This document shows, in pieces, positions 11,688 through 44,025 of a DNA stretch of 64,000 nt (its first letter is position 1; every line of letters begins with the position of its first letter). The position numbers and the translations under genes are program-made. The DNA lies in NCBI GenBank assembly GCA_036268855.1, contig DATATJ010000173.1:30237-94236 (forward strand). The letters run 5' to 3'. The notes below the pieces were generated by a model. That model was not told where the DNA came from and did no database searches. It saw only the letters and a list, made by a program, of their open reading frames with translations. This DNA is from Vicinamibacterales bacterium (GTDB taxonomy: Bacteria; Acidobacteriota; Vicinamibacteria; Vicinamibacterales; CAVVIG01).

Positions 11688-11720
11688 CAATGCGGTCGCG
11701 GTAAGATCGACCGTCTTGAA

Positions 11721-11793: not shown

Positions 11794-11801
11794 TGATCAA
11801 C

Positions 11802-15115: not shown

Positions 15116-15643
15116 TCAAGGCTCATGCCGGGGACGCGATGGCCGGCTCAGCCAGATGAAGAAGGCGATCAGGAACGCGGCTGGGATGAACGGCCCCCAC
15201 CATTCGCGCAGGCCGAACGCCGACAGCGCTCCCGACCCGAGCTTCACCAGCAGCATCAGCGCGCTCGCCCAGGCAAACGCGCTCAGCGTGTTGAGCGCGC
15301 TGAATTTCAGCGGACGCACGTTCGCGTACGCGCAGGCCACCGGGATTGCCGTCCGCAGACCGGGAAGAAATCGGCTGGCCAGGATGATCAGCCCTTCGTG
15401 CGCGTGCACATGTGCGCTGACGCGATCCCGGTATTTCGCGATCTTCGGATAGCGATTGAGCCATTCCACGCGGCCGCGCAGCACATAAAACCAGAGCTGA
15501 TCGCCGGTTGCGCCGCCGAGGGCGCCGGCAATCAGCACGGGGATCCAGTGGAGTCGGCCGCTGATCGCGAGCCCGCACGCGCTGATGTAGTAGATCTCGC
15601 CCTCGAGAATGGCGGCGATGTAGATCGGCAGGTAGACGAACAT
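15116..15643 (-). CDS. DedA/VTT-family membrane protein
   Basis: 175 aa, multi-TM. Contains the GDQLWFYVLRG and ASRFLPGLRT motifs of the DedA family. Its ATG overlaps the upstream TAA by 1 nt (TAATG). Confidence 0.8.
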   Translation of the reverse strand: MFVYLPIYIAAILEGEIYYISACGLAISGRLHWIPVLIAGALGGATGDQLWFYVLRGRVEWLNRYPKIAKYRDRVSAHVHAHEGLIILASRFLPGLRTAIPVACAYANVRPLKFSALNTLSAFAWASALMLLVKLGSGALSAFGLREWWGPFIPAAFLIAFFIWLSRPSRPRHEP

Positions 15644-16887: not shown

Positions 16888-16986
16888 CGATCGAAGCGTA
16901 CTACGAGACCACGAATCACGCTCGACGCAGAAGCCGCGGATCGAACACCGCGCGCCGCGTGTTCCGCGTCGAGTGCCGCGCCGGTT

Positions 16987-18396: not shown

Positions 18397-18429
18397 TCTG
18401 CGGAACCGGAACCTGCGTGAACGCCGGCA

Positions 18430-29398: not shown

Positions 29399-30337
29399 AT
29401 GTCTCGAAGGAGCCTGGCGTCGCGGGCGGCTGTCGTCGCCGTCGGTCTGTTCGCTCTCTGGGCGTCACTCGCCTTTGCGCAAACCGCGGCGCCCGATCCG
29501 GCGGCGCTCGTCAGGCAGGCGCGCAAGTTGAACCTCGAAGGGAAGCAGGACGAGGCGATCGCGACGTACCGCGAGGCACTGATGCGCGCGCCCGATCTGT
29601 ACGACGCCCACTACGGGCTCGGCATCGCGCTCGATCTCACGGGCGCGTACGGGCAGGCGCGGCAGTCGTTCATGAAGGCGATTCAACTGGCGCCCGACGA
29701 GAGCAAGGAGCAGGCGCTGAGCGCCATGGCCGTCTCCTACGCCTTCAGCGGCGACGGGCGGGAGGCGTCGTCGTTCTACCGGCAGGTGTTCGATCGCCAG
29801 ACCGCGGCCGACAATTTTTCCGCCGCGGCCGAGACCGCGAACGCGCTCGGTCGGGTGTATCTCGAGACGGGCGATCTCGACAACGCGGCCAAGTGGTATC
29901 AGACCGGATACGAGACCACGCGGCGCCAGAAGGCGATGTCGAGCGCGCAGATCGACCTGGCGGATCTGCGGTGGGCGCACGCGCAGGCCCGGATCGCCGC
30001 GCGGCGGGGGAACGCGGCGACCGCGCGCGCGCAGGTCGCCGAGGTGACGCGTCTGCTCGACAAAGGCACGAACGAGGAGCAGCGGATTCAGCTCCCGTAT
30101 CTGCTGGGATACGTCGGTCTGTTTCTCAAGGACTACGCCGGCGCGGTCACCGCGCTGCGGCAGGCGGACCAGCAGGATCCGTTCGTCCTGTTCCTGCTGG
30201 CACAAGCCCAGGAGAAATCGGGCGACGCCGCCGGCGCGCGCGAGCTGTACGAGAAGGTGCTCGCCTCGAACGCGCACAGCCTCAACAACGCGTTCGCCCG
30301 CCGGACGGCCCGGAGCAAGCTGGCGGCAACGCGCTAG
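29399..30337 (+). CDS. secreted tetratricopeptide-repeat protein
   Basis: Start at MSRRSLASRAAVVAVGLFALWASLAFAQ. TPR units such as EGKQDEAIATYREALMRAPDLYDAHYGLGIAL. Confidence 0.8.
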   Translation: MSRRSLASRAAVVAVGLFALWASLAFAQTAAPDPAALVRQARKLNLEGKQDEAIATYREALMRAPDLYDAHYGLGIALDLTGAYGQARQSFMKAIQLAPDESKEQALSAMAVSYAFSGDGREASSFYRQVFDRQTAADNFSAAAETANALGRVYLETGDLDNAAKWYQTGYETTRRQKAMSSAQIDLADLRWAHAQARIAARRGNAATARAQVAEVTRLLDKGTNEEQRIQLPYLLGYVGLFLKDYAGAVTALRQADQQDPFVLFLLAQAQEKSGDAAGARELYEKVLASNAHSLNNAFARRTARSKLAATR

Positions 30338-30353
30338 TCTTCAACGCATCGGG

Positions 30354-30414
30354 CCCAAATCCTCAAATCCCCAAATCCCCAAATCCCCAAATCCCAAATC
30401 CTCAAATTTCCCCT
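30354..30414 (+). repeat. tandem C(3-4)AAAT(C) repeat (about 7 units); G-free on the + strand, G-quadruplex-capable on the - strand
   Basis: CCCAAATCCTCAAATCCCCAAATCCCCAAATCCCCAAATCCCAAATCCTCAAATTTCCCCTC. No G from 30354 to 30419. Confidence 0.9.
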
Positions 30415-30418
30415 CTAT

Positions 30419-30530
30419 TGCGGTTTCGACATCAGCGTAGACGTAGCGCGACGGCTTTATCCGAGCGTTTCTGGCGCCGCGCGGCGCGCGGCTAAAGCCG
30501 TCGCGCTACATCGAATCGAAAACCGCGCTA
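30419..30530. terminator. long nested inverted repeat at a convergent junction (probable bidirectional terminator or structured RNA)
   Basis: Perfect 17-bp arms GTAGCGCGACGGCTTTA (30443-30459) and TAAAGCCGTCGCGCTAC (30493-30509). Outer arms GCGGTTTCGA/TCGAAAACCGC. The loop contains the palindrome GCGCCGCGCGGCGC. Confidence 0.55.
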
Positions 30531-31283
30531 AGGGTATTCATAAATAATATGCACCCGCACCGGCTTATCTTTGTCGTCCAGCAGGTTGGACGGCCCGGCG
30601 AACTCGAGCAGGCGCCCGGACGCGAGATCGATCGTGACGTCGCTCGGCGTCGAGAAGAAGCGAAAGGCCGCCGAGCTCATTTCGAGCCGGACGGTCAGCA
30701 GGTTGCCCTGGACCGCGCGCTTGTAGATGCGCACGCCGTATGACGTCATCCGCGACGGCACGATCGACTGCGCGTACAGCGATTGCCCACGCTCGAGCGC
30801 GGCGCGCTGGTCGATGATGTACAGCATGATGCCCTGGAACGTCATCAGATCGTCGCGCAGCGCGAGCGTCCGGTGCTCTTCCGCGCCGTGTGCCAGCTGC
30901 TGGGTGATGAGCACGCCGTGACGATCGATCTGCGGCTCGATCGCGTACCGGTAGTTATCGCGATGATCGATCATCCGCGTCGTCGGCAGATATCGCCGGC
31001 TGCCGACGTCCGCCGACAGCTCGGCGATCGGCGCGCCGCTGGCGGCGACATAGCGTGTGTTGATGTCGGTGCGGCCCTTGGCGGTCCGCAGCGTGTGATA
31101 TTCGGTGTACCAGAACGTGCCGGCATCGGTGACGGCGCGTCCGAAGAATGAGGAGTACGCCGGGTCGCCGGGCGCCCGCCCTGTAGAGATGACCTGCCGG
31201 CGGTCGGGCAGCGTCGCGCCGCGAAGGACCGCCGCCGCAGCCGTCATCACGACCAGCCCCCAGCAGACACGCCGCAGCGTCAT
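30528..31283 (-). CDS. hypothetical secreted protein
   Basis: Start at MTLRRVCWGLVVMTAAAAVLRG, sharing 1 nt with the upstream stop (TGATG). No recognisable domain. Confidence 0.6.
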   Translation of the reverse strand: MTLRRVCWGLVVMTAAAAVLRGATLPDRRQVISTGRAPGDPAYSSFFGRAVTDAGTFWYTEYHTLRTAKGRTDINTRYVAASGAPIAELSADVGSRRYLPTTRMIDHRDNYRYAIEPQIDRHGVLITQQLAHGAEEHRTLALRDDLMTFQGIMLYIIDQRAALERGQSLYAQSIVPSRMTSYGVRIYKRAVQGNLLTVRLEMSSAAFRFFSTPSDVTIDLASGRLLEFAGPSNLLDDKDKPVRVHIIYEYP

Positions 31284-32428
31284 CAGAACGTCCGCCTCGC
31301 CACCCACTCTCGCAGCAGGGAGTCCACCACGACGTACCGGTCGGCGTCGCGGGCGATCACATCGTCTCGCACCAGTGCGGCGAGCGAGGCCTGGACCGTC
31401 GATGGTCCGCCGAGGCGATAGCGCGTCCGTGCATCGCCCGACAGGAGCTCGCGTCCCTCCTCCAGCACGACGGCGCGCAGCGCGGCGCGCTGCGCCAGCG
31501 TCAGCCGCTGCCAGAGGGCCTCGTACATGGTCTGCTGTTCCGTCAGCAGGCGGCGGAGCGCGCGATGCAGATCATCGAGCGTCGCCCGACGACGGCCGCT
31601 GGCGCGCAGATGGTCCCACGTTTCGTGGGCGAGCCGCTGCACGTCGTAGGGCAGATTGCCGGCCAGCTCGACCACCGCGTCGCCGAAGCCAGGCTCCGGC
31701 CGCAGGCCCGACCGCGCGAAGCGCGCGTCGATGAACGCCGCGAACTCGTCGGCGGGAATCTTCTCGAGGCGCATGACCGGGCCGGCCTTGTAGAACGGAC
31801 GTTTCGGTCCGAGCATCCGCTCCATCAGGCTCGGCTCGGAGCCGGCGAACACGTATCCGACGTCGCGCTGATGCTGCACCGCCGCGCGCATCGCGTGCTC
31901 GACCGAGCCGCCGTTGAAACCGCCAATCGCCTGGAATTCGTCGAGCGCGACGACCACCTGGCGGCGTCGCGCCTCGGCCAGACGCGCCGGCAGGGCGAAG
32001 ACGTCCTGCGCGAGTCGGGAGACGTCGCGATCCGATCGAACGCTGGGAAACGAGACGGCGAGCGCGCCCGGAGGGGAGCCGTCCGGCGCGTACCGGATCT
32101 CTACGCGTGCGGAGCCGACCGCCTCGCGGAGCCACGTGCGCGCGCGATCCCATTTGGTCTCGGCGGCCATCACGGCCCGGGCGTAGCCTTCGAGGAATGC
32201 GACGTACGAGCTGAAGCTGCTGACGGTCACCTCGACGGTGAGCGCCCCGTGCCTCGCCATCGCGGACAGGGCGTGGCGGATGAGCGACGACTTGCCGTAC
32301 CGCCGGGGTGAGATCAGGAAAATCTTCTGACCGGCCCCGAGATCGGCGACGAGGCGATCGAGCTCGACGACGCGGTTGACGAACGCCGCCACGGGAACGA
32401 CCTCGCCGTAGACGAAAGGATTCTGCAT
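31283..32428 (-). CDS. P-loop ATPase of the Arch_ATPase/ATPase_2 type with C-terminal winged-helix-like region
   Basis: 381 aa. Walker A SPRRYGKSS, Walker B VVVALDEFQ. C-terminal LTLAQRAALRAVV...STVQASLAALVRDDVI. Confidence 0.75.
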   Translation of the reverse strand: MQNPFVYGEVVPVAAFVNRVVELDRLVADLGAGQKIFLISPRRYGKSSLIRHALSAMARHGALTVEVTVSSFSSYVAFLEGYARAVMAAETKWDRARTWLREAVGSARVEIRYAPDGSPPGALAVSFPSVRSDRDVSRLAQDVFALPARLAEARRRQVVVALDEFQAIGGFNGGSVEHAMRAAVQHQRDVGYVFAGSEPSLMERMLGPKRPFYKAGPVMRLEKIPADEFAAFIDARFARSGLRPEPGFGDAVVELAGNLPYDVQRLAHETWDHLRASGRRRATLDDLHRALRRLLTEQQTMYEALWQRLTLAQRAALRAVVLEEGRELLSGDARTRYRLGGPSTVQASLAALVRDDVIARDADRYVVVDSLLREWVARRTF

Positions 32429-32466
32429 TACGGCGCCATGCGTAATGATTACGTTATATCACGTAA
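32428..32466. promoter_or_regulatory. two tandem TTACG-N8-CGTAA inverted repeats, centres 21 bp apart, overlapping the ATPase start codon
   Basis: + strand: TTACG 32428-32432, CGTAA 32441-32445, TTACG 32449-32453, CGTAA 32462-32466. Confidence 0.6.
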
Positions 32467-32489
32467 GAGGCCACGCGGCCGCCGGCGTG

Positions 32490-33737
32490 TCAGTAGTACC
32501 TCAGCGGCAGGTCGATCACGACGCGCCGCCGCACCAGGTCGGCCAGCAGGGGGGACAGCGTGCCCGCCGGCAGCGACTCGAGCGCGGCTCGAGGAACCGT
32601 CAGGTCGGCCGGCAGATACTCGCGGCACGCACCGTACTCCTGCTCGTAGTCCTCGGACGGAAAGCGCAGCGTGAGCCGGACGCCGCCGCCCTCTGGCGCC
32701 GTCGCATACAGTGGGTTGACCCGAAACTCGCCGCGCGCTCCAGCCGGCGGGCGAAGCGAATGCGCGGCGAACACGCCGGGGCAGGAGGACGCGACGATCG
32801 TCAGCGCCAGCTCGCCGTGCAACGTCTCCGGCGGCTCGTGCCGCGAGAGATCCAGCGGCCCCTCCCGCACGACGTCCCGAAGCAGCGCCGTCTCGCCAAA
32901 CAGGCGAGGCGACAAATCCTCGAAGAGATCGCGGTACGCCTCGGGCGGCAGCGGCATGCCCGCCGACGGATTCCACTGATGGGCGTTGTGCGTGTGGCTG
33001 ATCACGACGGCCCGGCGTGCGTCGCCCGTGTCCGTGAGCCGGATCATCTCCGACGCGAACAGGCGCTTCGTCCAGATGTAGTGATACGCATCCGAGCAGA
33101 CCGCCACGCGAAATGCGCCGCGCGCGAACGGCAGCGGTGCGTTGCCGTCGCAGCAGACGCCGGCGCAGCCGGGCGCCGTGAACCGCCGGCCGAGCCAGAC
33201 CTTCGAGTAATACAGGTCGGCCAGCACGGGCGGCGGCGTCGAGACGTCGAGCAGCGTGCGCGTCAGGTGACCGGATCCGCCGCAGACGTCGATGGCGCGT
33301 CCGCCGCCTGCCAGCACCGTTTCGGCAACCGCCCGCACGACGGCCTGCGAGACGAGATAGGTCGGATCCGTGAAGCGATAGAGGAAGTAGCCCCCCTCGA
33401 AGTGCGGACCCAGCGCGACGACAATGTCCTTGTAGGTGGCCGTCGGCGAGGCCGCGACCTCGGCGAAGCGCCGCACGCCGTCCTCTTCCTCGATCCCGAG
33501 CATCGCCAACAGCGCCAGATCGGCGCGCCCCGCGTCCAGGTGCTCGCGCGCGGCCACCGCGGAAGGCTCGAGATGGATGACCGGAATGCCGTCCACGACG
33601 GGGTACGCGCAGCAGTGGCAGCCGAGAATGCCGTCGATGACCTCGTCGCCGCGGCGATGGACCCGGCCCGATTCGACGACGCCGAGGCGTCCGCCGCAAA
33701 AAGGACAGCGGAGGATGTCGAGGAGATCGGGCCGCAT
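32490..33737 (-). CDS. class I SAM-dependent methyltransferase with N-terminal Trm112-like zinc ribbon
   Basis: 415 aa. LLDILRCPFCGGRL...GILGCHCCAYPVVDGIPV, then motif-I-like IDVCGGSGHLTRTLL. Confidence 0.75.
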   Translation of the reverse strand: MRPDLLDILRCPFCGGRLGVVESGRVHRRGDEVIDGILGCHCCAYPVVDGIPVIHLEPSAVAAREHLDAGRADLALLAMLGIEEEDGVRRFAEVAASPTATYKDIVVALGPHFEGGYFLYRFTDPTYLVSQAVVRAVAETVLAGGGRAIDVCGGSGHLTRTLLDVSTPPPVLADLYYSKVWLGRRFTAPGCAGVCCDGNAPLPFARGAFRVAVCSDAYHYIWTKRLFASEMIRLTDTGDARRAVVISHTHNAHQWNPSAGMPLPPEAYRDLFEDLSPRLFGETALLRDVVREGPLDLSRHEPPETLHGELALTIVASSCPGVFAAHSLRPPAGARGEFRVNPLYATAPEGGGVRLTLRFPSEDYEQEYGACREYLPADLTVPRAALESLPAGTLSPLLADLVRRRVVIDLPLRYY

Positions 33738-33740
33738 CGA

Positions 33741-34559
33741 TCAGCGTGCCTCTTCAGACGACGACGCCGGCATCGGATCCCCAAGCCATTCGAGCACGGA
33801 CGGCCCGCCGGCGACGGTCGCGGCTCGCCGGAAGTGCTCGGCGCCAAGCCACCGGCGCATGCCGGCCACGTCCACCCATGCGATCGGATTGCGCACGCCG
33901 AGCTGCGTTCGATGGCAGCGCAGCGCGGCGAGCTTGGCTTCGGCCCATGGCCGGACATCGACGACCAGCGTGCACGGTTGGGCGGAGTCGCCGAACGCGT
34001 CGGGCTCGATCCCCCAGAAGCTCGCGTCGGGTGCGCCGCCCTTCGCGCGCGCCTCGTCCACCATCGCGCGGATCGCCCCCTTGGGCATCGTGACGTAATA
34101 AAGCGGCGGGGCCTCCGTGCCGAGCGACCGCAAGGCCGTGTACGTGCGCTCGTGCACGCCGATGTGATCGAGATGCCAGTACAGCCCGTCTTCGCCGAAC
34201 GTGATCACGGCGTCGGGGCGGAACCGGCGGAGCGCGACGACGATTTCGCCGTGCAGCTCGGGCACGTCCGCCCACCGCACGTCGCCATCGGGATGACGGC
34301 AGACGATCAGGTCGCTGATGCCGAGCGCTTCGGCGGCCGTGCGCAGCTCCGCGACGCGTGCGCGCCCCAGATCGCCGTCGGCCACGAGCGCCGGGTCGCT
34401 CACCGATCCCTTCTCGCCGCGGGTCGCGCAGATCAGGACGACGCGCGCGCCCGCGCTGGCTGCGCGGGCGAGCGTCCCGCCGCAGGCAATCGACTCGTCG
34501 TCGGGGTGCGCGAAGATCGCCAGGATGGTGCGGCCCGAGAGGGAGCGATCACCCGGCAC
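33741..34559 (-). CDS. PIG-L/LmbE-family N-acetylglucosaminyl deacetylase
   Basis: 272 aa, GTG start. Signature ILAIFAHPDDESIACGGTLA and HxDH-type block WHLDHIGVHE. Confidence 0.85.
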   Translation of the reverse strand: MPGDRSLSGRTILAIFAHPDDESIACGGTLARAASAGARVVLICATRGEKGSVSDPALVADGDLGRARVAELRTAAEALGISDLIVCRHPDGDVRWADVPELHGEIVVALRRFRPDAVITFGEDGLYWHLDHIGVHERTYTALRSLGTEAPPLYYVTMPKGAIRAMVDEARAKGGAPDASFWGIEPDAFGDSAQPCTLVVDVRPWAEAKLAALRCHRTQLGVRNPIAWVDVAGMRRWLGAEHFRRAATVAGGPSVLEWLGDPMPASSSEEAR

Positions 34560-35586
34560 GATGGGTCTCGACCAGGCGGTGATAGACGGCGATGTACTCC
34601 CGCACCATCCGGTCGATCCCGAAGCGCTCGACGGCGCGGTCCCGGACGCGCCGGCGGTCCAGGTCGAAGACGCGCGGCAGCTGGTTCACCATCTCTTCGA
34701 GGTGCTCGAACACCAGGCCGGTCACGCCGTCGTCCACGATTTCCCGCACGGCGCCGCGATCGAGCGCGGCGACCGGTGTCCCGCAGGCCATCGCCTCGGC
34801 CAGCACGAGCCCGAACGGCTCGCGCGCCTGGATTGGGTAGAGCAGCGCCCGCGCCCCGCCGTACAGCTTCACTTTCGACGGGTAGTCGGCTTCGCCGTAG
34901 TACACGACGTCGGTGCCGTCGACGAGCGGAGCCACTTTCTCGCGATAGTACTCGTCCTCGGCCGCCGCGAGCATCAGCCGGATGCCCAGCCGCTTCGCGA
35001 TCTCGATCGCCTGCAGCACGCCTTTGCCGTCGGTGAAGCGGCCGAGGAAGAGCAGGTAGTCGTCCGGTTTCTCGCGGAACGTGAAGTTGGCGGTGTCGAT
35101 GCCGTGCAGCACGATGTCCACGACGTTCAGGCCGTGCAGGAGGCGTCCCTGCTCTTGCGAGATGGCGACGAATGGCGCCTCAGGATAGCGCGACCAGAGC
35201 TTGATTTCCGCCTCGCTCGGCGAATGATGCAGGGTCTGGACGATCGGCGTCGGCGAGAGCCGCGCGAACGCCAGCGACATCGGGTAGTACGCCGCCTCGT
35301 AGTGGATGATGTCGAATTCGCGCGCGCGCTCGACGGCGGCGGCGAGGTTCAGCATCTCGTAGAGCTCCCACGGCCACATGTTCTCGTCGTGCCAGTAGCC
35401 GTGCGGATACGTGGCGGAGAGCTTCGCGTCCGTCTGCGAGTCGCCGGTGGCGAAGAGTGTGACGTCGTGACCGTGCGCGACGAGCCCCTCGGTGAGCAGC
35501 GACGTCATCAGCTCGACGGAGCCCGATTTCTGCGGCGGAATCGTCGTGGCGACCGGCGCGATGTGCGCGATGCGCAACGGCGTCAT
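34549..35586 (-). CDS. GT4-family (GT-B) glycosyltransferase
   Basis: Start at MTPLRIAHIAPVATTIPPQKSGSVE (ATGA overlap at 35583-35586). C-terminal EPFGLVLAEAMACGTPVAALDRGAVREIV (E-x7-E). Confidence 0.85.
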   Translation of the reverse strand: MTPLRIAHIAPVATTIPPQKSGSVELMTSLLTEGLVAHGHDVTLFATGDSQTDAKLSATYPHGYWHDENMWPWELYEMLNLAAAVERAREFDIIHYEAAYYPMSLAFARLSPTPIVQTLHHSPSEAEIKLWSRYPEAPFVAISQEQGRLLHGLNVVDIVLHGIDTANFTFREKPDDYLLFLGRFTDGKGVLQAIEIAKRLGIRLMLAAAEDEYYREKVAPLVDGTDVVYYGEADYPSKVKLYGGARALLYPIQAREPFGLVLAEAMACGTPVAALDRGAVREIVDDGVTGLVFEHLEEMVNQLPRVFDLDRRRVRDRAVERFGIDRMVREYIAVYHRLVETHRAG

Positions 35587-36701
35587 GACAGCGCGTCCTC
35601 GAGCAGCCGCGGGAGCACGACGTTGGCGTCGAAGTGCTCGCGGGCGATCTCTGCGGCGCGGCGCGCGTGCGCCGGATAGTCGCTGTTGAGGCGATCGATG
35701 CCGGCAAGCGCTTCGTCGGGGCTCGAGAAGGCGAGGAGACCGCAGTCTGACGGCAGATGCGCTGTCCAGCCGGTGTCCTGCACGAGCGCAGGGCGTCCAG
35801 CGGCCAGGTAGCACTCGGTGCGATCGCTGAACCAGCCGCTGCGCGTGGACACGTACGTGTGCTTGGCGACGCCGAATTCCGCGCGCGACCGCAGAATGAA
35901 TTCGCGGTAGTCCCACAGCGTCCGGGAGACTCCCATGGCCGCCACCGTGTCCCAGCCGTGCTCGCGCAGCATCGTCTGCGGACCATTGATCGCCAGCTCG
36001 AACGGCTGCGTCGTGCGCGCCGGCAGATCGATGTACTTCACGAACTCCTGATCCTTGTTGCCGCCGACGTCGGTGAAGCTCTCGATCTGCCAGGTCATCA
36101 CGGTCGTCATGCGATCGCGCGGCGTGAGCGTCGTCGTCCACTGATCGAGCGTGATCGGCTGCCAGGTCTTGCGCCACGTGAAATCCCCGACGGGGATGGT
36201 CGACGCTGCGGTTCCGACGTTCGATCCGAACGTGAACAGGCGGTCGAAGGTTTTGAAGAATGCCACATACCACGGCTCCGCCTTCGCGATCGCGAGCTGG
36301 GTGAACGCTGGGTCCGAATCGATGAAGATCTTACGCGGGATCCGGACGTACTCGTCGCGCCAGAACCACGAGCCGCCCGACAGGTTGATGAACAGGTCTG
36401 CGGTCGCGGCATAGCGCCGGACGGCGTCGGCGCTTTGTCCATGATACGTGCCGTCGTAATTGACGAACGACCAGCGATCGCCGAGCCCGAACGAATCGAG
36501 CGCCTGGTGAATGTACGACGTGCCATAGGAGGGATCGGTGGCCCGCGTGTTGAGCACGGGATCGTACACGCACTCGCCCGTGTCCTCGATGTAGAAGACT
36601 TCGTGGCCGAGCGCCCGCAGGCCCAGGAGGTACATGAGGGAGCACCACGTCACGCCGCCGAAGGGATAACGCGCGATGATGCCGGCGAACAAGATCCTCA
36701 T
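35583..36701 (-). CDS. putative GT-B glycosyltransferase (CgeB/Glyco_trans_1_2-like C-terminus)
   Basis: 372 aa. N-terminus MRILFAGIIARYPFGGVTWCSLMYLLGLRALGHEVFYIED. C-terminus ECYLAAGRPALVQDTGW...GLLAFSSPDEA. The assignment is tentative. Confidence 0.5.
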   Translation of the reverse strand: MRILFAGIIARYPFGGVTWCSLMYLLGLRALGHEVFYIEDTGECVYDPVLNTRATDPSYGTSYIHQALDSFGLGDRWSFVNYDGTYHGQSADAVRRYAATADLFINLSGGSWFWRDEYVRIPRKIFIDSDPAFTQLAIAKAEPWYVAFFKTFDRLFTFGSNVGTAASTIPVGDFTWRKTWQPITLDQWTTTLTPRDRMTTVMTWQIESFTDVGGNKDQEFVKYIDLPARTTQPFELAINGPQTMLREHGWDTVAAMGVSRTLWDYREFILRSRAEFGVAKHTYVSTRSGWFSDRTECYLAAGRPALVQDTGWTAHLPSDCGLLAFSSPDEALAGIDRLNSDYPAHARRAAEIAREHFDANVVLPRLLEDALS

Positions 36702-36729
36702 AAAGAGTTAAGAGTGCAGAGTTCAAATG

Positions 36730-38574
36730 TCACCGCTTCGCCGCCTCGATGAGCTCGTCCACCGTCTCGGGATCATCGAGCGACTTGCCGACCGACAGGC
36801 GGGCGCACATGCGCCGGTACAGATTGCTCGTCGTCAGCAGCTCTTCGTGGCGCCCCTTGGCAGCGATGCGGCCGCCGTCGAGCACGAGGATGCAATCCGC
36901 GTCGCGCACGGTCGAGAGCCGATGGGCGATCACGATCGTCGTGCGGCCGTCGCGCAGACGCCGCAGCGCGGCGAAGACGATCTCCTCCGAGATCGCGTCG
37001 AGCGACGAGGTCGGTTCGTCGAGAATCAGGATCGGCGCATCCTTCAGGATGGCGCGGGCCACGCTCAGCCGCTGACGTTCCCCGCCCGACAGCCCGCCGC
37101 CCGCTTCGGCGATCTCCGTCTCGTAGCCCTTGGGCAGCCGCACGATGAAGTCGTGGGCATGCGCCGCGCGCGCCGCCTGCTCGATCTGATCCTGCGTGGC
37201 GTCGAGGCGCCCGTAGCGCAGGTTGTCGGCGATGGTTCCCGAAAAGAGCACCGGATCCTGCAGCACGATCGCGATCCGATCGCGCAGCGCGCGCACGCGG
37301 TAGCGCTGCACGTCCACGCCGTCGATCAGCACGCGGCCGGTGGTGGCCGTGAAGAACCGCGGAATGAGGCTGACGAGCGTCGTCTTGCCCGCGCCCGTGA
37401 GCCCGACGAGCGCCACGACCTGGCCGGGCTTCGCCTCGAACGCGATGTCGTGCAGCACCTGCGTGCCGTCGGGATACGAGAATCCGACGTTGTCGAACGT
37501 GATCTCGCCGGTGATTCGCGTAGCGTCGATCGCGTCGGGCGCCTCGGCGGTTTCCGGCATGAGCGCGAACATCGCCCGCACCCGCTTGGTGCCCGCGAGC
37601 GCACCCTGGAGTTGTCCGGTGGTGTGCGCGATGGCCGCCAGCGGCCCGTACACCGCCGCGAGATAGCCGATGACCACAGTGAGCTGCCCGATGGTGAGCC
37701 GTCCGCTCATGACGAACCGGCCGCCGACGATCAGCACGAGCGCGGTGCCGAGAATGGTGATGGTGCTCACGACCACGCCGAAGACCGATTGCTGCCACGT
37801 GATCGCGATCCGCGCGGTCATCGTCCGATCGCCCGCGACGCCGTAGCGCATCAGCTCGTGCGGCTCGCGCGCAAAGCTCTTGACGAGGCGCATGGCCCCG
37901 AACGTCTCGTACAGGCGCTGCAGGAGCTTCGATTCGAGCTCCTTCACGCGCTCTTCACGGTTGACGAGCGTGGACGTGTAGTAGCGCAAGCACAAGTACA
38001 GGAACGGCACGACCGTGAGCGACAGCAGCGCGATCGTGACGTTGAGGTACAGCAGCACGCCGAACATCACCGTCAGCGCCGCGATCGATGTGGCGAGCGG
38101 AAAGATGCCGCTCATCACCAGGTTCTCGATCGCGTACGCGTCCACGTCGACGCGGTACACGGCATCGGCCGTACTCGTCGTGATGTGATGATGCAGGCCG
38201 AGCGCCGTCAGGTGCTCGAACAGGCGCTTACGCAGGTCGTACACCAGGCGCTGACCGGTATCGACCTGAACCTGCGTGCCGTACGCCGACACGAGCTGGT
38301 TGACGATCTGCAGTACCACGCCGCCCACCACCACGAGGACGAGCAGGCTGGTCCGGTTGCCCTGCGTGAGATCGTTCACCCAGACCGCGAGGCGTCCGGG
38401 AAACGCTTTGGTGCCGAGCACGTAGTCGATCACGACGGCCAGAGGCCACGGCTGCAGCGCACCGAGGCCGATCTCCGACGCGAGCAGCACGGCGAGCAGT
38501 CCGACACTGCGGCGGTACGGGCGCAGGAACGACAGCGTCCACGGCAGGAGCGGTTGCTGAGCCGGCTCGGTCAT
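36730..38574 (-). CDS. MsbA-like ABC exporter (fused 6-TM domain plus NBD)
   Basis: Start at MTEPAQQPLLPWTLSFLRPYRR (ATGA overlap with the upstream gene). Walker A GLTGAGKTT, signature LSGGERQRL, Walker B ILILDEPTS. Confidence 0.9.
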   Translation of the reverse strand: MTEPAQQPLLPWTLSFLRPYRRSVGLLAVLLASEIGLGALQPWPLAVVIDYVLGTKAFPGRLAVWVNDLTQGNRTSLLVLVVVGGVVLQIVNQLVSAYGTQVQVDTGQRLVYDLRKRLFEHLTALGLHHHITTSTADAVYRVDVDAYAIENLVMSGIFPLATSIAALTVMFGVLLYLNVTIALLSLTVVPFLYLCLRYYTSTLVNREERVKELESKLLQRLYETFGAMRLVKSFAREPHELMRYGVAGDRTMTARIAITWQQSVFGVVVSTITILGTALVLIVGGRFVMSGRLTIGQLTVVIGYLAAVYGPLAAIAHTTGQLQGALAGTKRVRAMFALMPETAEAPDAIDATRITGEITFDNVGFSYPDGTQVLHDIAFEAKPGQVVALVGLTGAGKTTLVSLIPRFFTATTGRVLIDGVDVQRYRVRALRDRIAIVLQDPVLFSGTIADNLRYGRLDATQDQIEQAARAAHAHDFIVRLPKGYETEIAEAGGGLSGGERQRLSVARAILKDAPILILDEPTSSLDAISEEIVFAALRRLRDGRTTIVIAHRLSTVRDADCILVLDGGRIAAKGRHEELLTTSNLYRRMCARLSVGKSLDDPETVDELIEAAKR

Positions 38575-41500
38575 GCGCCGGGCCTCTTCAACGGGACCGG
38601 CACGAACGGCCGCGGGACCAGAATCGGGCCGGACGACGTCTTGGGGATGTTGACGGCGACCACGTTGTCGTTGCTCGAATCGGTGACGTACAACCAGCCC
38701 CGCCGCGGCCCGCTCGCGGCGAACGCGACGCGCGACGGCGCGCCGAACGCCACGCGCCCCTCGTCGCTGACGTTGCGCATGATGCCGTCGGGCCCAACGG
38801 CGCGCACCTGCCCGTTGTAGTAGTCGGCGATGAAAATGGTGACCGCGCCTCCCGACTCCGGCACGATGGCGATTCCGGCCGGGCCGGCGAGGTTCGCAGC
38901 AATCGCCGGACCGTCGTCGCCGCCCGGCCCGAACGTGCCGCTGCCGGCGACCGTCATGATCAGGTGCGACAGCGGATTCACCTTTCGGATGCGCTGGTGG
39001 TGCATGTCGGCGATGTAGATGTCGCCGTTCGGCGCCAGCTGCACGTCGGCCGGCATGTTGAGGTGGGCGGCGGGCGCCGGACCATAGTCGCCGACGTTGT
39101 TGTTGTCGCCAGGCTTGCCGTCGCCGGCGACGGTGTGAATCAGCCCCGTTCGCGAATCGACGACGCGGACGCGGTAGTTCAGGGTGTCCGCGATGTAGAT
39201 GTCGCCGTTCGGGGCGCACGCGACCGCGCTCGGCGTGTTCAATGCCGCTTCGGTCGCCGGCTTGTCGTCGCCGTCGTAGCCGTTGGCGCCCGACCCGGCG
39301 ACGGTGGTGATGATGCGCGTCGGCTTGTCGATGCGGCGAATGCGATCGTTGTGCGAGTCGGCGACGACGAGGTCGCCGTCAGGCGCGATGCAGACGCCGT
39401 CAGGCGTGTCGAGCTGCGCCTTGAGCGCCGGTCCGTTGTCTCCAGAGAAACCAGTCTTGCGGCTGATGCCGACCACAGCGACCGGCGGGCTCGCCTTGCC
39501 GAGCGTGTTCGCCGCGGCGCGGACGATGACGTCGTTGTTGGAGTCGGCGACGTAGAGATCGCCGTTCAGGTCGACCACGATGCCGCCCGGCGCGTCCAGC
39601 CACGCCGACATGGTCGGCCCGTTGGGCCCCGCGGGTCCGCCGGCCTTGGCGCCGATGACGACCTCGGCGATCGCCGCCTGGCGCAGCATCACGGCGCCGG
39701 CGCCGAGCGCGAGAATCATCACGACGAAGATGATCGCGCTGCGCAGGCCGTACACGCGCAGGATCGACGGCGCGATCAGCGGCACGCGCGCCGGGCCCGA
39801 CTTCAGCACCATCATGCCGCCGTCGACCGCGACGCGCTCGATGCCACGGCGCAGAATCGCGGTCACCTGGGCCGTCCGCCACGACGCGAACGCGATGACC
39901 ACGAGCATCAGCGTCGCGGCGATCGCGGCGCCGAGCGGCTGATTCAGCGCAAAGCCGCGGAACGCGGCGACCAGCAGCGCCACGCCGAGCGCGACGGCCG
40001 TGACTACGCCGAAGGTGGTGGGCCGCAGGTGCGTGCTGACGCGCACCAGCGCCTTGCCGCCGGCATGCTCTTCGACGAGCGCACGCACGTCGAGCCAGGC
40101 CCAGCGGCCGACGAAGACGCTGACGTCCCGGTCGTTGGACCATCCCTCGTCGACCTCGACCGAGCGGACTGCCCGTGAACGGCGCAGCCAGTCGGTGAGC
40201 TGCGTGAGGACGCGGTCGGCCGACGTCCACGTCTCGCTCCAGAAGCGATCTTCGGTGACCGTGCCCGAGAGCAGCAGCAGCGCGCGCCCGGCTTCGCGCA
40301 GCGACGGGCTCGGCATGCGGCTGGTCTGCGGCTCGGTCGGGGGCAGCGCGATCTCGGGCGGCGCGAGCACTCCGCGAATGCGGCCGCGGATGCGTGCAAG
40401 CGGCTGGATGAAATGGAGGTACGAGACCATCGCGCGATACCAGAGCCGTCCGCCGGGCAGCGAGGCGACGTCCGATCGCTTCGCATACGCAACGTTCTTC
40501 GCGATGGTGAACGCCATGCCGAGAATGCCGCAGCCCAGGAGCAGGTAGGACGCCCAGAGATGCGCGCGGGTGGCCGCGACGCCGGCGCCCGTGAGCGTCA
40601 GGACGAACGACAGCACCTGCCAGCGGATCGAATGCGGCAGGAATGCAAACGGGTGCACGTCGGTGCGGTACACCGAGGGAAACGCCGCCGTGCCCCAGAC
40701 GCCCGCGTTGATGCGCGTGCCCCAGAGCGATCGCACGAAGGGCAGCGGACTGTAGATGCGCCCGCGCCACAACATGCGCCCGTCGAGAAACTTCTCGGGA
40801 TGGTGCGCCATCAGCCACGTTTCGCCTTCGCCGTAGCCGACCTGCTGACGCCAGTAGGCCTTCACCGAGGAGCGATGGTGGTGCCAGACCAGCGCCGACG
40901 AGGCGAAGCCGATTTTCCAGCCGCGTGCCTGCAGCCGCCAGCACACATCCACATCGTCGCCCGCGCGCAGATAGATGGGGTTGAAGCCGCCGATGGCGAG
41001 GAGGGCCTCGCGGCGGAACGCCATGTTGCAGCCCGGCACGTGCTCGGCGATGCGGTCGTCGAGCAGCACGTGCGTCGGGCCGCCGGGAGCGCGCGCGATG
41101 CACTGCGCGATCGGCGGATCGTCGGGCGGCACGACGTTCGGTCCGCCGGAGCCGACCACGTCGAGCGTCAGGAACGGCTGAATCAGAAATGTGAGCCAGT
41201 CGCGATCCACACGCGTATCGGCGTCCGTATAAGCGACGATGTCGCCGGTCGCCTCCGCGAGGCCCACGTTGCGCGCCGCGCTGAGGCCGCCGTTCGGGAT
41301 GTCGATGACGTGGACGCGCGGATGCGCGCGCCCGATCTCGCCGGTGCGATCCTTCGAGCCGTCGTTGACGAGGATGATCTCGTAGTCGGGATACGTCAGC
41401 TTCTCGAGCGAGGTGAGGTTGTCTTCGAGCGTGTCCGCCGCGTTGTAGGCGCAGACGACGACCGAGACGCGCGGCCAGGTGGCGCGCCGGCCGGCGGGAA

Positions 41501-42428
41501 ACGGCGCATCGGCGAAGGCGGCCGCCACGGCGCGCGCGGCCGGCTTCAGCCGGCGCTCGCGGTCCACGAGGCCGAAGTTCCAGTCCTCGACGGTATTTCC
41601 GCCGCGCCACCATGCGTCGGTCCACGCGAACGCGACGGCGCCGCACGCGCCTTCCTCGAACGCCGCACGGATGTGCATCGAGGTGATAGCGGCCTGTCCG
41701 TCCTCGCCCTCGCGGATCGAGTCGGCGCCCGCCTCCGCCAGCAGGAGCGGCTTGTGCGCGGCGACATGCTGGAGGCGCGCGAGATACGCGCGCAGCTCCG
41801 ACTCGCGATGGAGATAGACGTTGAAGGCGCAGACGTCCAGGAACGAGAGATCCAGAAACTCGGTCGGAGGGAAATTGACGTACGTGAACAGACTCTGCGG
41901 CAGCGCGCCTTTCGCGTCTTCGTACAGCCCGCGGATGAAACGCTCGACCCGCACGCTGCCATGCCAGCGAACCACGCCCGGCGGAATCTCGTTGCCCAGC
42001 GCGAACATCAGGATCGCCGGGTGGTCGCCCAGCGCGCGGACCCGCTCGGTGACGTCGCGGCGGATCTCCTGCTGCAGGCGGCGGTCGTCGAGGAACGCGA
42101 CGTGCTGCGACCACGGCAGGCCGACCATCACACGCAGCCCGTGCTTCGCGGCCTCGTCCAGCAGGTCGTGGCGCGGCGCCGTGTACGTGCGAACGGTGTT
42201 GATGCCGAGGCCCGCCATGAGGCGGAAGTCTTCGGCGATCTGGGGCGGCGACGGAAACTGATAGCCGTCCGCGTCGGGCGCGAAGGTCCCGTACGTCACG
42301 CCCTTGACGAGAAAGCGCGCGTCGCCAAGGCGCAGAAATTTCCCGTCGGCGCTGACGCGCTCGGCTGAGGCCGGCGCCGCCGTGTCGGGGCGCACCTCGG
42401 GGTCGGCCTGAAGAGCAGTAGGGCTCAC
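38571..42428 (-). CDS. 1285-aa fusion protein: clan GH-A-like TIM-barrel hydrolase, GT2 glycosyltransferase, multi-TM region, six NHL repeats
   Basis: GTG start. aa 27-305 has KGVTYG...GINTVRTY...LGNEIP...LLLAEAG. aa 318-545 has VVVCAYN...ILVNDGSKD...YTDAD...GDDVDVCWRL...YWRQQVGYGEG. About 6 hydrophobic segments lie in aa 575-915. aa 945-1260 has the repeats DLYVADSNNDVIVR, DLVVADSHNDRIRRI, DIYIADTLNYRVRVV, DIYIADMHHQRIRKV, IFIADYYNGQVRAV and WLYVTDSSNDNVVAV. Confidence 0.8.
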   Translation of the reverse strand: MSPTALQADPEVRPDTAAPASAERVSADGKFLRLGDARFLVKGVTYGTFAPDADGYQFPSPPQIAEDFRLMAGLGINTVRTYTAPRHDLLDEAAKHGLRVMVGLPWSQHVAFLDDRRLQQEIRRDVTERVRALGDHPAILMFALGNEIPPGVVRWHGSVRVERFIRGLYEDAKGALPQSLFTYVNFPPTEFLDLSFLDVCAFNVYLHRESELRAYLARLQHVAAHKPLLLAEAGADSIREGEDGQAAITSMHIRAAFEEGACGAVAFAWTDAWWRGGNTVEDWNFGLVDRERRLKPAARAVAAAFADAPFPAGRRATWPRVSVVVCAYNAADTLEDNLTSLEKLTYPDYEIILVNDGSKDRTGEIGRAHPRVHVIDIPNGGLSAARNVGLAEATGDIVAYTDADTRVDRDWLTFLIQPFLTLDVVGSGGPNVVPPDDPPIAQCIARAPGGPTHVLLDDRIAEHVPGCNMAFRREALLAIGGFNPIYLRAGDDVDVCWRLQARGWKIGFASSALVWHHHRSSVKAYWRQQVGYGEGETWLMAHHPEKFLDGRMLWRGRIYSPLPFVRSLWGTRINAGVWGTAAFPSVYRTDVHPFAFLPHSIRWQVLSFVLTLTGAGVAATRAHLWASYLLLGCGILGMAFTIAKNVAYAKRSDVASLPGGRLWYRAMVSYLHFIQPLARIRGRIRGVLAPPEIALPPTEPQTSRMPSPSLREAGRALLLLSGTVTEDRFWSETWTSADRVLTQLTDWLRRSRAVRSVEVDEGWSNDRDVSVFVGRWAWLDVRALVEEHAGGKALVRVSTHLRPTTFGVVTAVALGVALLVAAFRGFALNQPLGAAIAATLMLVVIAFASWRTAQVTAILRRGIERVAVDGGMMVLKSGPARVPLIAPSILRVYGLRSAIIFVVMILALGAGAVMLRQAAIAEVVIGAKAGGPAGPNGPTMSAWLDAPGGIVVDLNGDLYVADSNNDVIVRAAANTLGKASPPVAVVGISRKTGFSGDNGPALKAQLDTPDGVCIAPDGDLVVADSHNDRIRRIDKPTRIITTVAGSGANGYDGDDKPATEAALNTPSAVACAPNGDIYIADTLNYRVRVVDSRTGLIHTVAGDGKPGDNNNVGDYGPAPAAHLNMPADVQLAPNGDIYIADMHHQRIRKVNPLSHLIMTVAGSGTFGPGGDDGPAIAANLAGPAGIAIVPESGGAVTIFIADYYNGQVRAVGPDGIMRNVSDEGRVAFGAPSRVAFAASGPRRGWLYVTDSSNDNVVAVNIPKTSSGPILVPRPFVPVPLKRPGA

Positions 42429-42467
42429 GGTATATAGTGCGCCACGCTACGCCGGACGCAACTACTT

Positions 42468-42476
42468 ATTGTATCA
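42468..42476 (-). promoter_or_regulatory. candidate extended -10 element (TGATACAAT on the - strand) upstream of the giant gene
   Basis: The + strand reads attgtatca. Lies about 40 nt upstream of the GTG at 42428. No good -35 element. Confidence 0.3.
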
Positions 42477-42531
42477 AGAGGTTGGAGCGGATGTTGCCCT
42501 GACCGGCAGGTTGAGCTGGGTCCCAGGTTCC

Positions 42532-43296
42532 CTACTGAGAAATCCTAAGACTCCCGCTGAACGTCTTGACGCGCAGCTCCCCCGACCCCGATCCACGCGT
42601 GCCGAGCGTCGCGCGGACACTTCGCCGGCTGCTGCTGTTGAACGTGAGCGGCAGGTCGGAATTCAGCTGCCCGCTGAAGGAGTTGAAGGCCACATCCGCC
42701 TGAGCCGAGGCGGGAACCGCGACCTCGACATTGCCGCTGAACGTGTTGACGTCGATCCGCTGGTCGGGCTGCCAGCGGTGCTCGCGAATGGCGATGGCTC
42801 CACTGAAGGAGTGCGCCTCGATCGAGCCTGCGGCATCGGTCGTCTCCAGGCGCGCCGAAAAACTGTGGATCTTCTGCGTGCCTTCGACTGCGCTGATATT
42901 GACCGGCGCGCTGAACACGGAGATGTCGAGGTTCGCGTGCCGCGGCACCTGGATGTCGAAGTCGGTTTCGACGACGTTGTTGCGCCCGGAGAACTCGTAC
43001 CACGAGCGCTCCCGATGGTTCGCGTCGACGACCACATTCGACCCTTCGGTGTGGATGTCGAGCTTGATCGCGTCGAGCCGGTCGCGCGGCCCCCGGCGGA
43101 CGGCGTCGATTGCCACGTCGCGCCGATCGGCGGCCCTGATGGTCACGCGGCCAGAAAAGCTCTTGAGCCGCAGCGTGCCGCCCGCCTCGAGCGCAACGGT
43201 CCGGCTGATGTGCTCGGTCTCGTCAGCGGCGCGCGCCGCGGGAGCGCTCAGCGTCGTGACGGCGGCGACAGCGACGGCAAAGGCCAGGTACCGCAT
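42532..43296 (-). CDS. DUF4097-like beta-strand-repeat secreted protein
   Basis: Start at MRYLAFAVAVAAVTTLSAPAARA. Repeated FSGRVTI / FSGAIAI / FSGNVEV / FSGQLNS / FSGSLRI strands. Confidence 0.6.
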   Translation of the reverse strand: MRYLAFAVAVAAVTTLSAPAARAADETEHISRTVALEAGGTLRLKSFSGRVTIRAADRRDVAIDAVRRGPRDRLDAIKLDIHTEGSNVVVDANHRERSWYEFSGRNNVVETDFDIQVPRHANLDISVFSAPVNISAVEGTQKIHSFSARLETTDAAGSIEAHSFSGAIAIREHRWQPDQRIDVNTFSGNVEVAVPASAQADVAFNSFSGQLNSDLPLTFNSSSRRSVRATLGTRGSGSGELRVKTFSGSLRISQ

Positions 43297-43338
43297 GGCC
43301 TCTTTGACGGGAAGGCCCGGCAAAGAGTTCGCCAGACG

Positions 43339-44025
43339 TCAATCAGGGGTGTCGAGCTTCAAGGCTCCGGTATAGATCGCCATGCCGACGACGGCGTCCA
43401 CGCCGCGAGCGTCGAGATCGTCGATTTCCTGCTGGGTGGTGATGCCGCCGGCGGCGGTCACCCGGCGCGTGGTCGCGTCGCGAACGGCCAGAATCGCCGC
43501 CAGGTTCGTCCCGCCCATGAGCCCCTCGGCGTCCACGTGCGTGTAGAGAAACTCGCCGCAGTACGGCTCCAGGGCGCGGACGGCCTCGACAGCGGTCAGC
43601 GACAGTTGCGTCTTCCAGCCGTGGATCACGACGCGGCCGCCGCGGCTGTCGACCGCGGCGATCACGCGGTCGCCGCCGACGGCATCGGCGAGTCCTTTCG
43701 CGAACGTCAGATCGGGCTGGCCGTCTTTGAAGAGCGCGGACCCCGCGATGATCTGCTGCGCGCCGGCTGCCAGCACGTCCCGCGCGCGCGCGAACGTGCG
43801 GATGCCACCGCCGACGCGGCACGACAAGGCAGCTGCGATCTCGCGAACGAGCGGGAGATTGTCGCCCGCGCCCATCGCCGCGTCGAGGTCGATCACCTGC
43901 ACCTTGGGAAACCGCGCGAAGCGCCGCACCCAGCGATGAACATCCGCGTCCCTGATCGCCAGCCGCTCGCCCTGGACGAGCTGCACGACGGCGCCGCTCT
44001 GAAGATCGATTGACGGAATCAGCAT
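43339..44025 (-). CDS. hisA: ProFAR isomerase HisA
   Basis: MLIPSIDLQSGAVVQLVQGE...VGGGIRT...GGITTQQEIDDL. ATG 44025 is preferred over the track's TTG at 44037. Confidence 0.8.
   Translation of the reverse strand: MLIPSIDLQSGAVVQLVQGERLAIRDADVHRWVRRFARFPKVQVIDLDAAMGAGDNLPLVREIAAALSCRVGGGIRTFARARDVLAAGAQQIIAGSALFKDGQPDLTFAKGLADAVGGDRVIAAVDSRGGRVVIHGWKTQLSLTAVEAVRALEPYCGEFLYTHVDAEGLMGGTNLAAILAVRDATTRRVTAAGGITTQQEIDDLDARGVDAVVGMAIYTGALKLDTPD

Follow-up and report, generated by a model that had tools for sequence, protein, structure and literature searches.

A GT4 glycosyltransferase gene overlapping an LmbE-family deacetylase gene within a conserved, putative glycan-export operon of Vicinamibacterales

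The analyzed window, i.e., the whole stretch of 64,000 nucleotides from contig DATATJ010000173.1 of a Vicinamibacterales bacterium (assembly GCA_036268855.1, positions 30,237–94,236), contains overlapping genes for a glycosyltransferase (GT) of family GT4 (34549–35586) and for a deacetylase of the LmbE/PIG-L family (33741–34559), both on the minus strand. The pair, hereafter GT4 and LmbE, most likely lies in the middle of an operon of six genes that is chromosomal and conserved in Vicinamibacterales. The minus-strand order is a synthase with glycoside hydrolase (GH)-like, GT2, and NHL regions; an ABC exporter; the protein P372; GT4; LmbE; and the protein MT415. The overlapping pair with its AHPDDE motif had been noticed in a first-pass annotation made from the sequence, and both the 11-nt overlap and the family assignments are confirmed by the coordinates and by Pfam. 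The features of the locus are as follows.

38571–42428, minus strand: putative synthase, a fusion protein of 1285 aa (Pfam, NCBIfam, and PDB searches, prediction of transmembrane (TM) segments)
36730–38574, minus strand: ABC exporter half-transporter, 614 aa (Pfam, NCBIfam)
35583–36701, minus strand: P372, a soluble protein of 372 aa with a predicted divergent GT-B fold (AlphaFold2 (AF2) model and Foldseek)
34549–35586, minus strand: GT4, a retaining glycosyltransferase of 345 aa from the TeGSS-like short-GT4 family, "SGS" subclade (Pfam, homology, tree)
33741–34559, minus strand: LmbE, a soluble zinc-dependent de-N-acetylase of the LmbE/PIG-L family (CE14), 272 aa (Pfam, residue alignment)
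34549–34559, minus strand: the 11-nt overlap of the GT4 and LmbE genes (coordinates of the open reading frames (ORFs))
32490–33737, minus strand: MT415, 415 aa, a Trm112-like zinc ribbon with a probable class I S-adenosylmethionine (SAM)-dependent methyltransferase core (Pfam, motif)
31283–32428, minus strand: ATPase of the ATPase_2/AAA family, 381 aa, a doubtful member of the system (Pfam)

The shared 11 nt, GTGCCGGGTGA (34549–34559), place the end of the GT4 gene over the GTG start of the LmbE gene; in two orthologous loci (L001 and L003) the overlap is 17 and 4 nt, respectively. At the other junctions, the ATG of the exporter overlaps the stop of the synthase (ATGA), 28 nt separate the exporter from P372, the stop of P372 overlaps the start of GT4 (ATGA), and 3 nt separate the stop of LmbE from the start of MT415. 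A scan of positions 30000–43500 for promoters and terminators yields no promoters and two intragenic terminator-like sites, with 4.8 expected by chance. Upstream of the operon lie a DUF4097 gene and the his operon, and the flanks consist of ordinary housekeeping genes. The GC content of the window is about 68%, that of the operon resembling the flanks, and full synteny beside the his operon is seen in Vicinamibacterales on contigs as long as 582 kb. On this arrangement, GT4 and LmbE are co-transcribed and, given the overlap, probably translationally coupled. GT4, LmbE, P372, and MT415 have neither a TM segment nor a signal peptide. An exporter and a methyltransferase had also been reported near the pair, and the genes that flank it are indeed an MsbA-like ABC transporter (36730–38574) and a probable methyltransferase (32490–33737).

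The GTG start of LmbE is the sole canonical start upstream of the conserved motif. Pfam assigns the protein to PIG-L (PF02585; 2.2e-30; 106.2 bits, cut-off 28.2; full-length domain, positions 1–128/129), with the motifs AHPDDE at residues 17–22 and HLDH at residues 129–132. The best relative with a solved structure is MshB (1Q74; 6e-16), and diacetylchitobiose deacetylase is also among the PDB matches. Residues H18, D20, D21, R68, D91, Y127, H129, D131, and H132 of LmbE align with His13, Asp15, Asp16, Arg68, Asp95, Tyr142, His144, Asp146, and His147 of MshB, covering its metal ligands, the general base, the oxyanion residues, and the sugar-contacting Arg and Asp. Across 33 orthologues (48–84% identity), none of these nine catalytic and sugar-binding positions varies; the metal-binding His and Asp residues, whose absence would have spoken against the first-pass proposal, are in place, and the MshB-type site is complete. 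By its residues, LmbE looks like a catalytically intact, working deacetylase of the N-acetylglucosamine (GlcNAc) type. At the same time, it falls below the NCBIfam equivalog cut-offs for MshB (98.8 bits against 224.35), Mca (83.5 against 277.15), BshB2 (79.1 against 195.25), and BshB1 (68.5 against 182.5), and on these scores is the orthologue of no named enzyme. An NCBI protein from a Vicinamibacterales metagenome-assembled genome (MAG), P0121, matches LmbE at 100% identity. Source databases label its orthologues variously as BshB2, "N-acetylglucosamine malate deacetylase 2", MshB, or generic LmbE; since these labels contradict each other, they are automatic transfers.

The ATG at 35586 gives GT4 a length of 345 aa, and its N-terminus, MTPLRIAHIAPV, fits the family consensus. 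Pfam finds Glycos_transf_1 (1.1e-19) and Glyco_transf_4 (5.2e-11), both above the cut-off, and the EX7E motif is present (EPFGLVLAE), being almost invariant in the family. The short-GT4 family comprises 1395 clusters (50% identity, E ≤ 1e-30); GT4 itself is 83–93% identical across more than 120 clusters from Vicinamibacterales, and its orthologues carry Acidobacteria/Vicinamibacterales annotation. Tandem GT4–GT4 fusions of 700–1060 aa also occur within the family (P0266, P0268, P0271, P0291, and P0298).

The closest characterized relative of GT4 is TeGSS (44% identity over the full length by BLASTP, 275 bits, E 8e-81), followed by BGluT (70 bits). TeGSS (tll1591, PDB 7FG9/8X3Q) is the UDP-glucose:sucrose alpha-1,2-glucosyltransferase of Thermosynechococcus elongatus (PMC9909042), and BGluT is a UDP-glucose:tetrahydrobiopterin glucosyltransferase; these are the only characterized members of the short-GT4 family found here, and both use UDP-glucose. 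Matches to the GlcNAc transferases are far weaker. GT4 is not MshA (31.1 bits against an NCBIfam cut-off of 462.5, residues 239–295 only), not BshA (41.6 bits against 273.7, C-terminal residues 248–339 only), and not the GlcNAc-phosphatidylglycerol synthase GpgS (46.8 bits against 480 for NF053787, in the generic C-terminal half), although the GpgS-type model is among its top three NCBIfam matches. BshA chains in the PDB score 29–41 bits, BshA and MshA overall score 27–42 bits, again in the generic C-terminal half, and the PIGA domain (PF08288) is absent from the Pfam matches of GT4 at E ≤ 0.01. The first-pass annotation had taken GT4 for a GlcNAc transferase like MshA, BshA, or PIG-A and had named grouping with other transferases as a finding that would count against this; the observed grouping with the glucosyltransferases TeGSS and BGluT is such a finding. 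The Chlorobium pteridine GlcNAc transferase CtPGT was considered as evidence for GlcNAc donors in the BGluT family and was not used, given its beta linkage, its low identity to known GTs, and a homology to BGluT that is not established.

The rim of the active site differs between GT4 and TeGSS. Where the family consensus is PPxxYGG, GT4 of the window has PPQKSGSVE; the consensus Tyr corresponds to Tyr18 of TeGSS, which touches the UDP phosphate and the acceptor and whose replacement (Y18F) leaves very low activity (PMC9909042). All cluster-linked relatives of GT4 have Ser, Gly, or Ala at this position. Relative to TeGSS, the substitutions in GT4 are Tyr18 to Ser, Trp10 to Ala, Arg117 to Ser, Asn122 to Glu, and Trp254 to Ala, whereas GT4 keeps the UDP-binding Arg179, Lys184, and Glu256. 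In the neighbor-joining tree, GT4 of the window, its Vicinamibacterales orthologues, some metagenomic representatives, and a Rubrobacter homologue form one uncharacterized clade without the family Tyr, standing apart from the cyanobacterial TeGSS group and from other phyla. GT4 is not a glucosylsucrose synthase of the TeGSS type, with the acceptor residues replaced and no sucrose-phosphate synthase neighbor in the window. Judged from these residues, GT4 certainly uses another acceptor than TeGSS does, and its donor could be another as well.

The gene neighborhood was compared across 84 loci obtained by exact-protein look-ups and by a scan of a genome collection with the family alignment, and 80 more from a metagenome scan. 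Each window protein was compared by phmmer with six-frame ORFs of all loci, and the HPDD motif was sought in addition in the 84 loci from look-ups and genomes. The metagenome scan, meant to sample the sister clade that resembles Rubrobacter, mostly gave members of the Vicinamibacterales type and of the YGG/YGPWE type; the contexts of that sister clade amount to a single locus.

A PIG-L gene lies directly downstream of GT4 in 15 loci (L001–L006, L008, L085–L089, L091, L118, and L150), all of which carry a GT4 of the Vicinamibacterales type; the two genes overlap or are tightly spaced, and identity is at least 55% for GT4 and 48% for LmbE. Of the 76 other genome loci, not one contains a PIG-L gene at a distance of up to 10 kb, even with phmmer matches of E ≤ 1 allowed; they represent Cyanobacteria, Alpha-, Beta-, and Deltaproteobacteria, Chloroflexota, Patescibacteria, Verrucomicrobiota, Bacteroidota, Actinomycetota, and one archaeon. 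No PIG-L gene is found in the 72 other metagenome loci, many of which are on short contigs. Two proteins, P0264 and P0244, first appeared to be GT4–LmbE fusions of the Rosetta-stone kind and were rejected as such: their middles are Arg/Pro/Ser-rich out-of-frame translation, i.e., they are frameshift chimeras of overlapping genes. They still attest GT4–LmbE adjacency in a more divergent lineage. Adjacency is not a matter of chance, since it recurs in 15 independent loci and again in P0264.

Two of these loci depart from the common pattern. In a more divergent member of Vicinamibacterales (L005), LmbE is followed, in the place of MT415, by a polytopic membrane protein of 420 aa (12054–13313) for which Pfam gives no match, a swap that again suggests modular tailoring. 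A contig labelled as an Acidimicrobiia MAG (L006, VFZL01000004.1) carries a complete cluster of the Vicinamibacterales type at 57–79% protein identity, and reflects either mis-binning or transfer of the operon between phyla.

Outside these loci, GT4s of the YGG type (41–42% identity) stand divergently beside an MsbA-like ABC exporter (30–33% identity) in seven loci from Alphaproteobacteria and Burkholderiaceae (L048, L057, L067, L069, L070, L075, and L076), so that the association of the GT4 family with ABC exporters reaches beyond the Vicinamibacterales-type cluster.

A related cluster is present in Rubrobacter taiwanensis (L050, NZ_SKBU01000001.1, 4728–13176), in the order GH/GT2 synthase lacking NHL (844 aa, 44% identity), ABC exporter (42%), APH-family kinase, GT4 (45%, with the motif APETGSSIE), P372 homologue (39%), and sulfotransferase. 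Neither LmbE nor MT415 is found there by phmmer of six-frame ORFs. By this comparison, the synthase, the exporter, GT4, and P372 form a conserved core, whereas the tailoring enzymes differ by lineage. With this split, LmbE appears as an accessory step in a glycoconjugate pathway and not as step two of a two-enzyme founding module; the earlier view of the pair as the start of a pathway does not hold, as the same GT4 clade occurs in the Rubrobacter cluster without LmbE.

The putative synthase of the operon consists, from N- to C-terminus, of a cytoplasmic clan-A GH-like TIM barrel, a GT2 domain, about 4–5 TM helices (approximately residues 624–915), and an NHL-repeat beta-propeller. Pfam finds Glycos_transf_2 (1.4e-30), Glyco_hydro_2_C (1.4e-06), and NHL/TEN_NHL; the best NCBIfam matches, MftF (154 bits) and PgaC (108 bits), are below the cut-off; and the PDB gives weak GH158/GH2 matches for the N-terminus and teneurin-type NHL for the C-terminus. 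The protein is kept in L001–L006, L008, L087, and L091. The ABC exporter (ABC_membrane 3.1e-33, ABC_tran 2.8e-31) adjoins the synthase in all cluster loci, including that of Rubrobacter; its NCBIfam matches, all below the equivalog cut-offs, include MsbA_rel (404 bits) and a glucan ABC transporter (369 bits).

P372 has only a sub-threshold Pfam match (Glyco_trans_1_2, 22 bits, CgeB/Glyco_trans_1_2-like), and sequence and profile searches of the PDB give nothing significant. Its AF2 model (pLDDT 69) matches the GT-B enzymes of the GT4/GT1 type PimA, MshA, BGluT, and BshA (Foldseek E about 1e-8). Homologues in more than 120 clusters share 79–90% identity, and that of the Rubrobacter cluster 39%. 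On the model, P372 is probably a second GT-B glycosyltransferase, so that the operon would encode three GT-type proteins, P372 standing beside the GT2 domain and GT4.

MT415 matches Trm112p (1.2e-4) and, below the cut-off, Methyltransf_25 (E 0.016) in Pfam, as well as Trm112_arch (39 bits) in NCBIfam, and carries the methyltransferase motif I, IDVCGGSGH. Profile search of the PDB yields only weak matches to class I methyltransferases, none significant, and the single-sequence AF2 model (pLDDT 33) is too low in confidence for a fold search. MT415 is a probable SAM-methyltransferase, judged by the motif. It is syntenic in L001–L004, L006, L008, L086, L087, L089, L091, and L150, and absent in L005 and Rubrobacter. 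The ATPase gene (ATPase_2, 2.5e-08) is syntenic downstream in L001–L003, L008, and L086. The spacer between it and MT415 (32426–32489) is 61 nt long, AT-rich, and contains several CGTAAT/ATTACG inverted repeats (e.g., 32426–32432/32441–32447, 32449–32466), which makes it a candidate operator or promoter; the spacer points to separate transcription of the ATPase gene, whose operon membership is doubtful.

Taken together, the reading that we favor, with somewhat better than even confidence, is that the operon serves to build a glycoconjugate (an oligo- or polysaccharide, or a glycolipid) on the cytoplasmic side, from where it is exported, LmbE and the methyltransferase being lineage-specific tailoring enzymes. 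One of the three GTs of the operon would install an N-acetylhexosamine (HexNAc); the soluble LmbE would remove the N-acetyl group from the terminal HexNAc of the cytoplasmic intermediate; the freed amine may then be methylated by the adjacent MT415; and the product would leave through the ABC transporter. The previously proposed preference for a lipid or polymer acceptor over a low-molecular-weight thiol fits this context of three GTs and an ABC exporter. Characterized LmbE enzymes mostly act on terminal GlcNAc installed by a preceding GT-B enzyme; because of this, and because of the strict adjacency, GT4 is ranked as the leading candidate for the HexNAc installer, albeit a tentative one, followed by P372 and then by the GT2 domain.

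Several points weigh against the favored reading. Membership in the operon follows from spacing and from synteny among fairly close relatives; the core is backed by one distant cluster, that of Rubrobacter; many metagenome contigs are too short for a missing neighbor to mean much; and the methyltransferase call for MT415 depends on a sub-threshold Pfam match and a motif. On a Vicinamibacterales chromosome (L007, OZ241898.1), a 63%-identical GT4 stands alone at 10001–11005 among DNA-repair genes (SbcCD-like and SNF2 helicase), with an LmbE homologue (51% identity) 9.4 kb downstream, at 20414–21004, at the edge of the examined DNA; this may be a paralogue or a broken cluster. No gene of the cluster has an established product, donor, or acceptor, and the sole characterized relatives of GT4 transfer glucose, which is no substrate for an LmbE.

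The alternative closest to the first-pass annotation is that GT4, with UDP-GlcNAc as donor, attaches GlcNAc to a lipid or glycan intermediate X and that LmbE converts this direct product, GlcNAc-X, to glucosamine (GlcN)-X, in parallel to MshA/MshB, BshA/BshB, and PIG-A/PIG-L. It has in its favor the 11-nt overlap and the strict adjacency in all 15 loci of the Vicinamibacterales type, the GlcNAc-binding Arg and Asp that LmbE shares with MshB, and the habit of characterized LmbEs mentioned above. The five replaced residues of the SGS subclade (Trp10, Tyr18, Arg117, Asn122, and Trp254 of TeGSS) imply substrates other than those of the glucose-transferring relative, and for related pteridine glycosyltransferases, donor specificity is reported to shift with few substitutions (PMC4133829). 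However, GT4 scores far under the BshA, MshA, and GpgS cut-offs and lacks the PIGA domain; its closest characterized homologues use UDP-glucose; the same clade is present in Rubrobacter without LmbE; the operon has two further GTs; and in L007 GT4 has no adjacent LmbE. We consider this alternative less likely than not. Of the co-expression that had been claimed for the two genes, the common transcript and the probable translational coupling stand, whereas a self-contained two-step module does not, as the operon is larger and either of its two other GTs could supply the substrate of LmbE.

Alternatively, LmbE may act on a HexNAc chain made by the GT2 domain (similar to poly-N-acetylglucosamine (PNAG) or chito-oligosaccharides) or by P372, with GT4 adding an alpha-glucosyl or another non-amino branch and adjacency reflecting the shared operon only. 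The sub-cut-off matches of the GT2 domain include the poly-GlcNAc synthase PgaC/IcaA (108 bits) and NodC, the predicted GT-B fold of P372 and the glucosyltransferase relatives of GT4 agree with such a division of labor, and some LmbE-family enzymes, e.g., the diacetylchitobiose deacetylase seen among the PDB matches, deacetylate chito-oligosaccharides. Still, the top match of the GT2 domain is not PgaC but MftF, annotated as a glucosyltransferase; deacetylases of PNAG-type polymers are periplasmic CE4 enzymes, while LmbE here is cytoplasmic; and a HexNAc polymer has no direct support. This assignment appears unlikely. Synthesis of a low-molecular-weight thiol (bacillithiol, N-methyl-bacillithiol, or mycothiol type) by GT4, LmbE, and the methyltransferase, with a cysteine ligase encoded elsewhere, is very improbable and was rejected on NCBIfam equivalog scores and operon context: although bacillithiol and N-methyl-bacillithiol pathways (bshA–C with the methyltransferase nmbA) are predicted in Acidobacteria (PMC6282198), the three genes superficially resemble bshA, bshB, and nmbA, and some LmbE orthologues are annotated as "N-acetylglucosamine malate deacetylase 2" or MshB, every equivalog model is missed widely (BshA, MshA, BshB1, BshB2, MshB), the operon partners are a GT2 synthase, an ABC exporter, and, in P372, another GT-B protein, and the contradictory source annotations are automatic transfers. 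In agreement with the earlier remark that no cysteine ligase gene is nearby, a Pfam scan of about 38 genes of the 64-kb window, small ORFs left out, reveals no BshC-, MshC-, or MshD-like gene.

An extension of the favored reading would be an undescribed modular platform (GH–GT2 synthase, MsbA-like ABC exporter, and two GT-Bs) common to Vicinamibacterales and Rubrobacter, in which swappable tailoring cassettes set the charge of the product and the SGS-type GT4 is a new specificity group, possibly switched to UDP-GlcNAc. We consider this extension rather doubtful as a whole. If it is true, LmbE and an N-methyltransferase would yield a cationic product with free or N-methylated glucosamine in Vicinamibacterales, and the kinase and sulfotransferase an anionic product in Rubrobacter.

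Comparison with known systems shows partial similarity in each case. TeGSS shares with GT4 the short architecture of about 345 aa and the UDP-binding residues; however, its gene adjoins that of sucrose-phosphate synthase and belongs to another subclade, whereas GT4 is in a GT2/ABC operon. MshA/MshB and BshA/BshB follow the same logic of a GT4 and then an LmbE-family zinc deacetylase, with an MshB-like site in LmbE of the window, but the window proteins are under the equivalog cut-offs and belong to a glycan-export operon, with no ligase found in the window. The eukaryotic PIG-A/PIG-L pair likewise combines a GT4-type transferase and a PIG-L deacetylase, possibly working on an acceptor that is associated with the cytoplasmic face of the membrane and is flipped afterwards; it differs in that the window system is bacterial, has no PIGA domain, includes a GT2 synthase and an ABC exporter, and has nothing pointing to phosphatidylinositol as the acceptor.

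In Pseudomonas aeruginosa, gpgSDF encodes a GT4 that transfers GlcNAc, a deacetylase active in the cytoplasm, and a flippase, which together make GlcN-phosphatidylglycerol (PMC12713373). GpgS/GpgD/GpgF and HexSDF of C. difficile resemble the window in operon logic, giving a cationic amino-sugar lipid, and gpgSDF provides an experimental precedent for a lipid acceptor; unlike LmbE, GpgD belongs to the COG3233 deacetylases, the translocator is an AglD2/YbhN-type flippase and not an ABC protein, and there is neither a GT2 synthase nor a second GT-B protein. A fourth known kind of GT4–LmbE pair, absent from the first-pass annotation, is that of aminoglycoside biosynthesis (BtrM/BtrD, NeoM/NeoL, KanF/KanN), where GT4 puts GlcNAc on 2-deoxystreptamine (2-DOS) and the LmbE-family enzyme deacetylates it. 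These pairs are found in actinobacterial and Bacillus secondary-metabolite clusters together with 2-DOS genes, which are not present at the window operon. Finally, cyclic beta-glucan synthases of the NdvB type combine a cytoplasmic GH-like domain with a membrane GT2 and are accompanied by NdvA/ChvA ABC exporters. The GH–GT2 fusion and the MsbA-like exporter of the window (369 and 295 bits on glucan-exporter models, below the cut-off) are similar to these; however, the GH domain is GH2/GH72/GH158-like and not GH17, and an NHL propeller, two GT-Bs, and tailoring genes are added; the analogy is with the operon core, and the product need not be a glucan.

Two further loci of the window are related to sugar modification. 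A second, unrelated PIG-L protein of 988 aa (11688–14654, plus strand; PIG-L at residues 94–225, E 3.5e-12, with NPCBM_assoc) is encoded directly downstream of a TonB-dependent-receptor-like outer-membrane protein (8748–11687, plus strand); by domain content, this pair looks like secreted or outer-membrane-linked glycan utilization. A sugar aminotransferase of the DegT/DnrJ/EryC1 type (15643–16986, minus strand) adjoins a radical-SAM protein (16987–18429, minus strand), possibly forming another sugar-modification pair.

The operon places the known glycosyltransferase-plus-LmbE logic in a highly conserved, uncharacterized, putative glycan-export setting; no literature on the cluster in Acidobacteria or Vicinamibacter was found. 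For annotation, a GT4 gene next to an LmbE gene does not by itself give the donor sugar or the pathway, and automatic annotation already mislabels LmbE as BshB2 or MshB. Among soil Acidobacteria, Vicinamibacterales are one of the most abundant groups, but their envelope and secreted glycans are barely known. The high conservation of the operon and its core-genome site beside the histidine operon suggest that the product is probably important to Vicinamibacterales; if it bears an amino sugar, free or methylated, this would have an effect on the charge of the surface, on how cells adhere to soil particles, and on their resistance to cationic antimicrobials.

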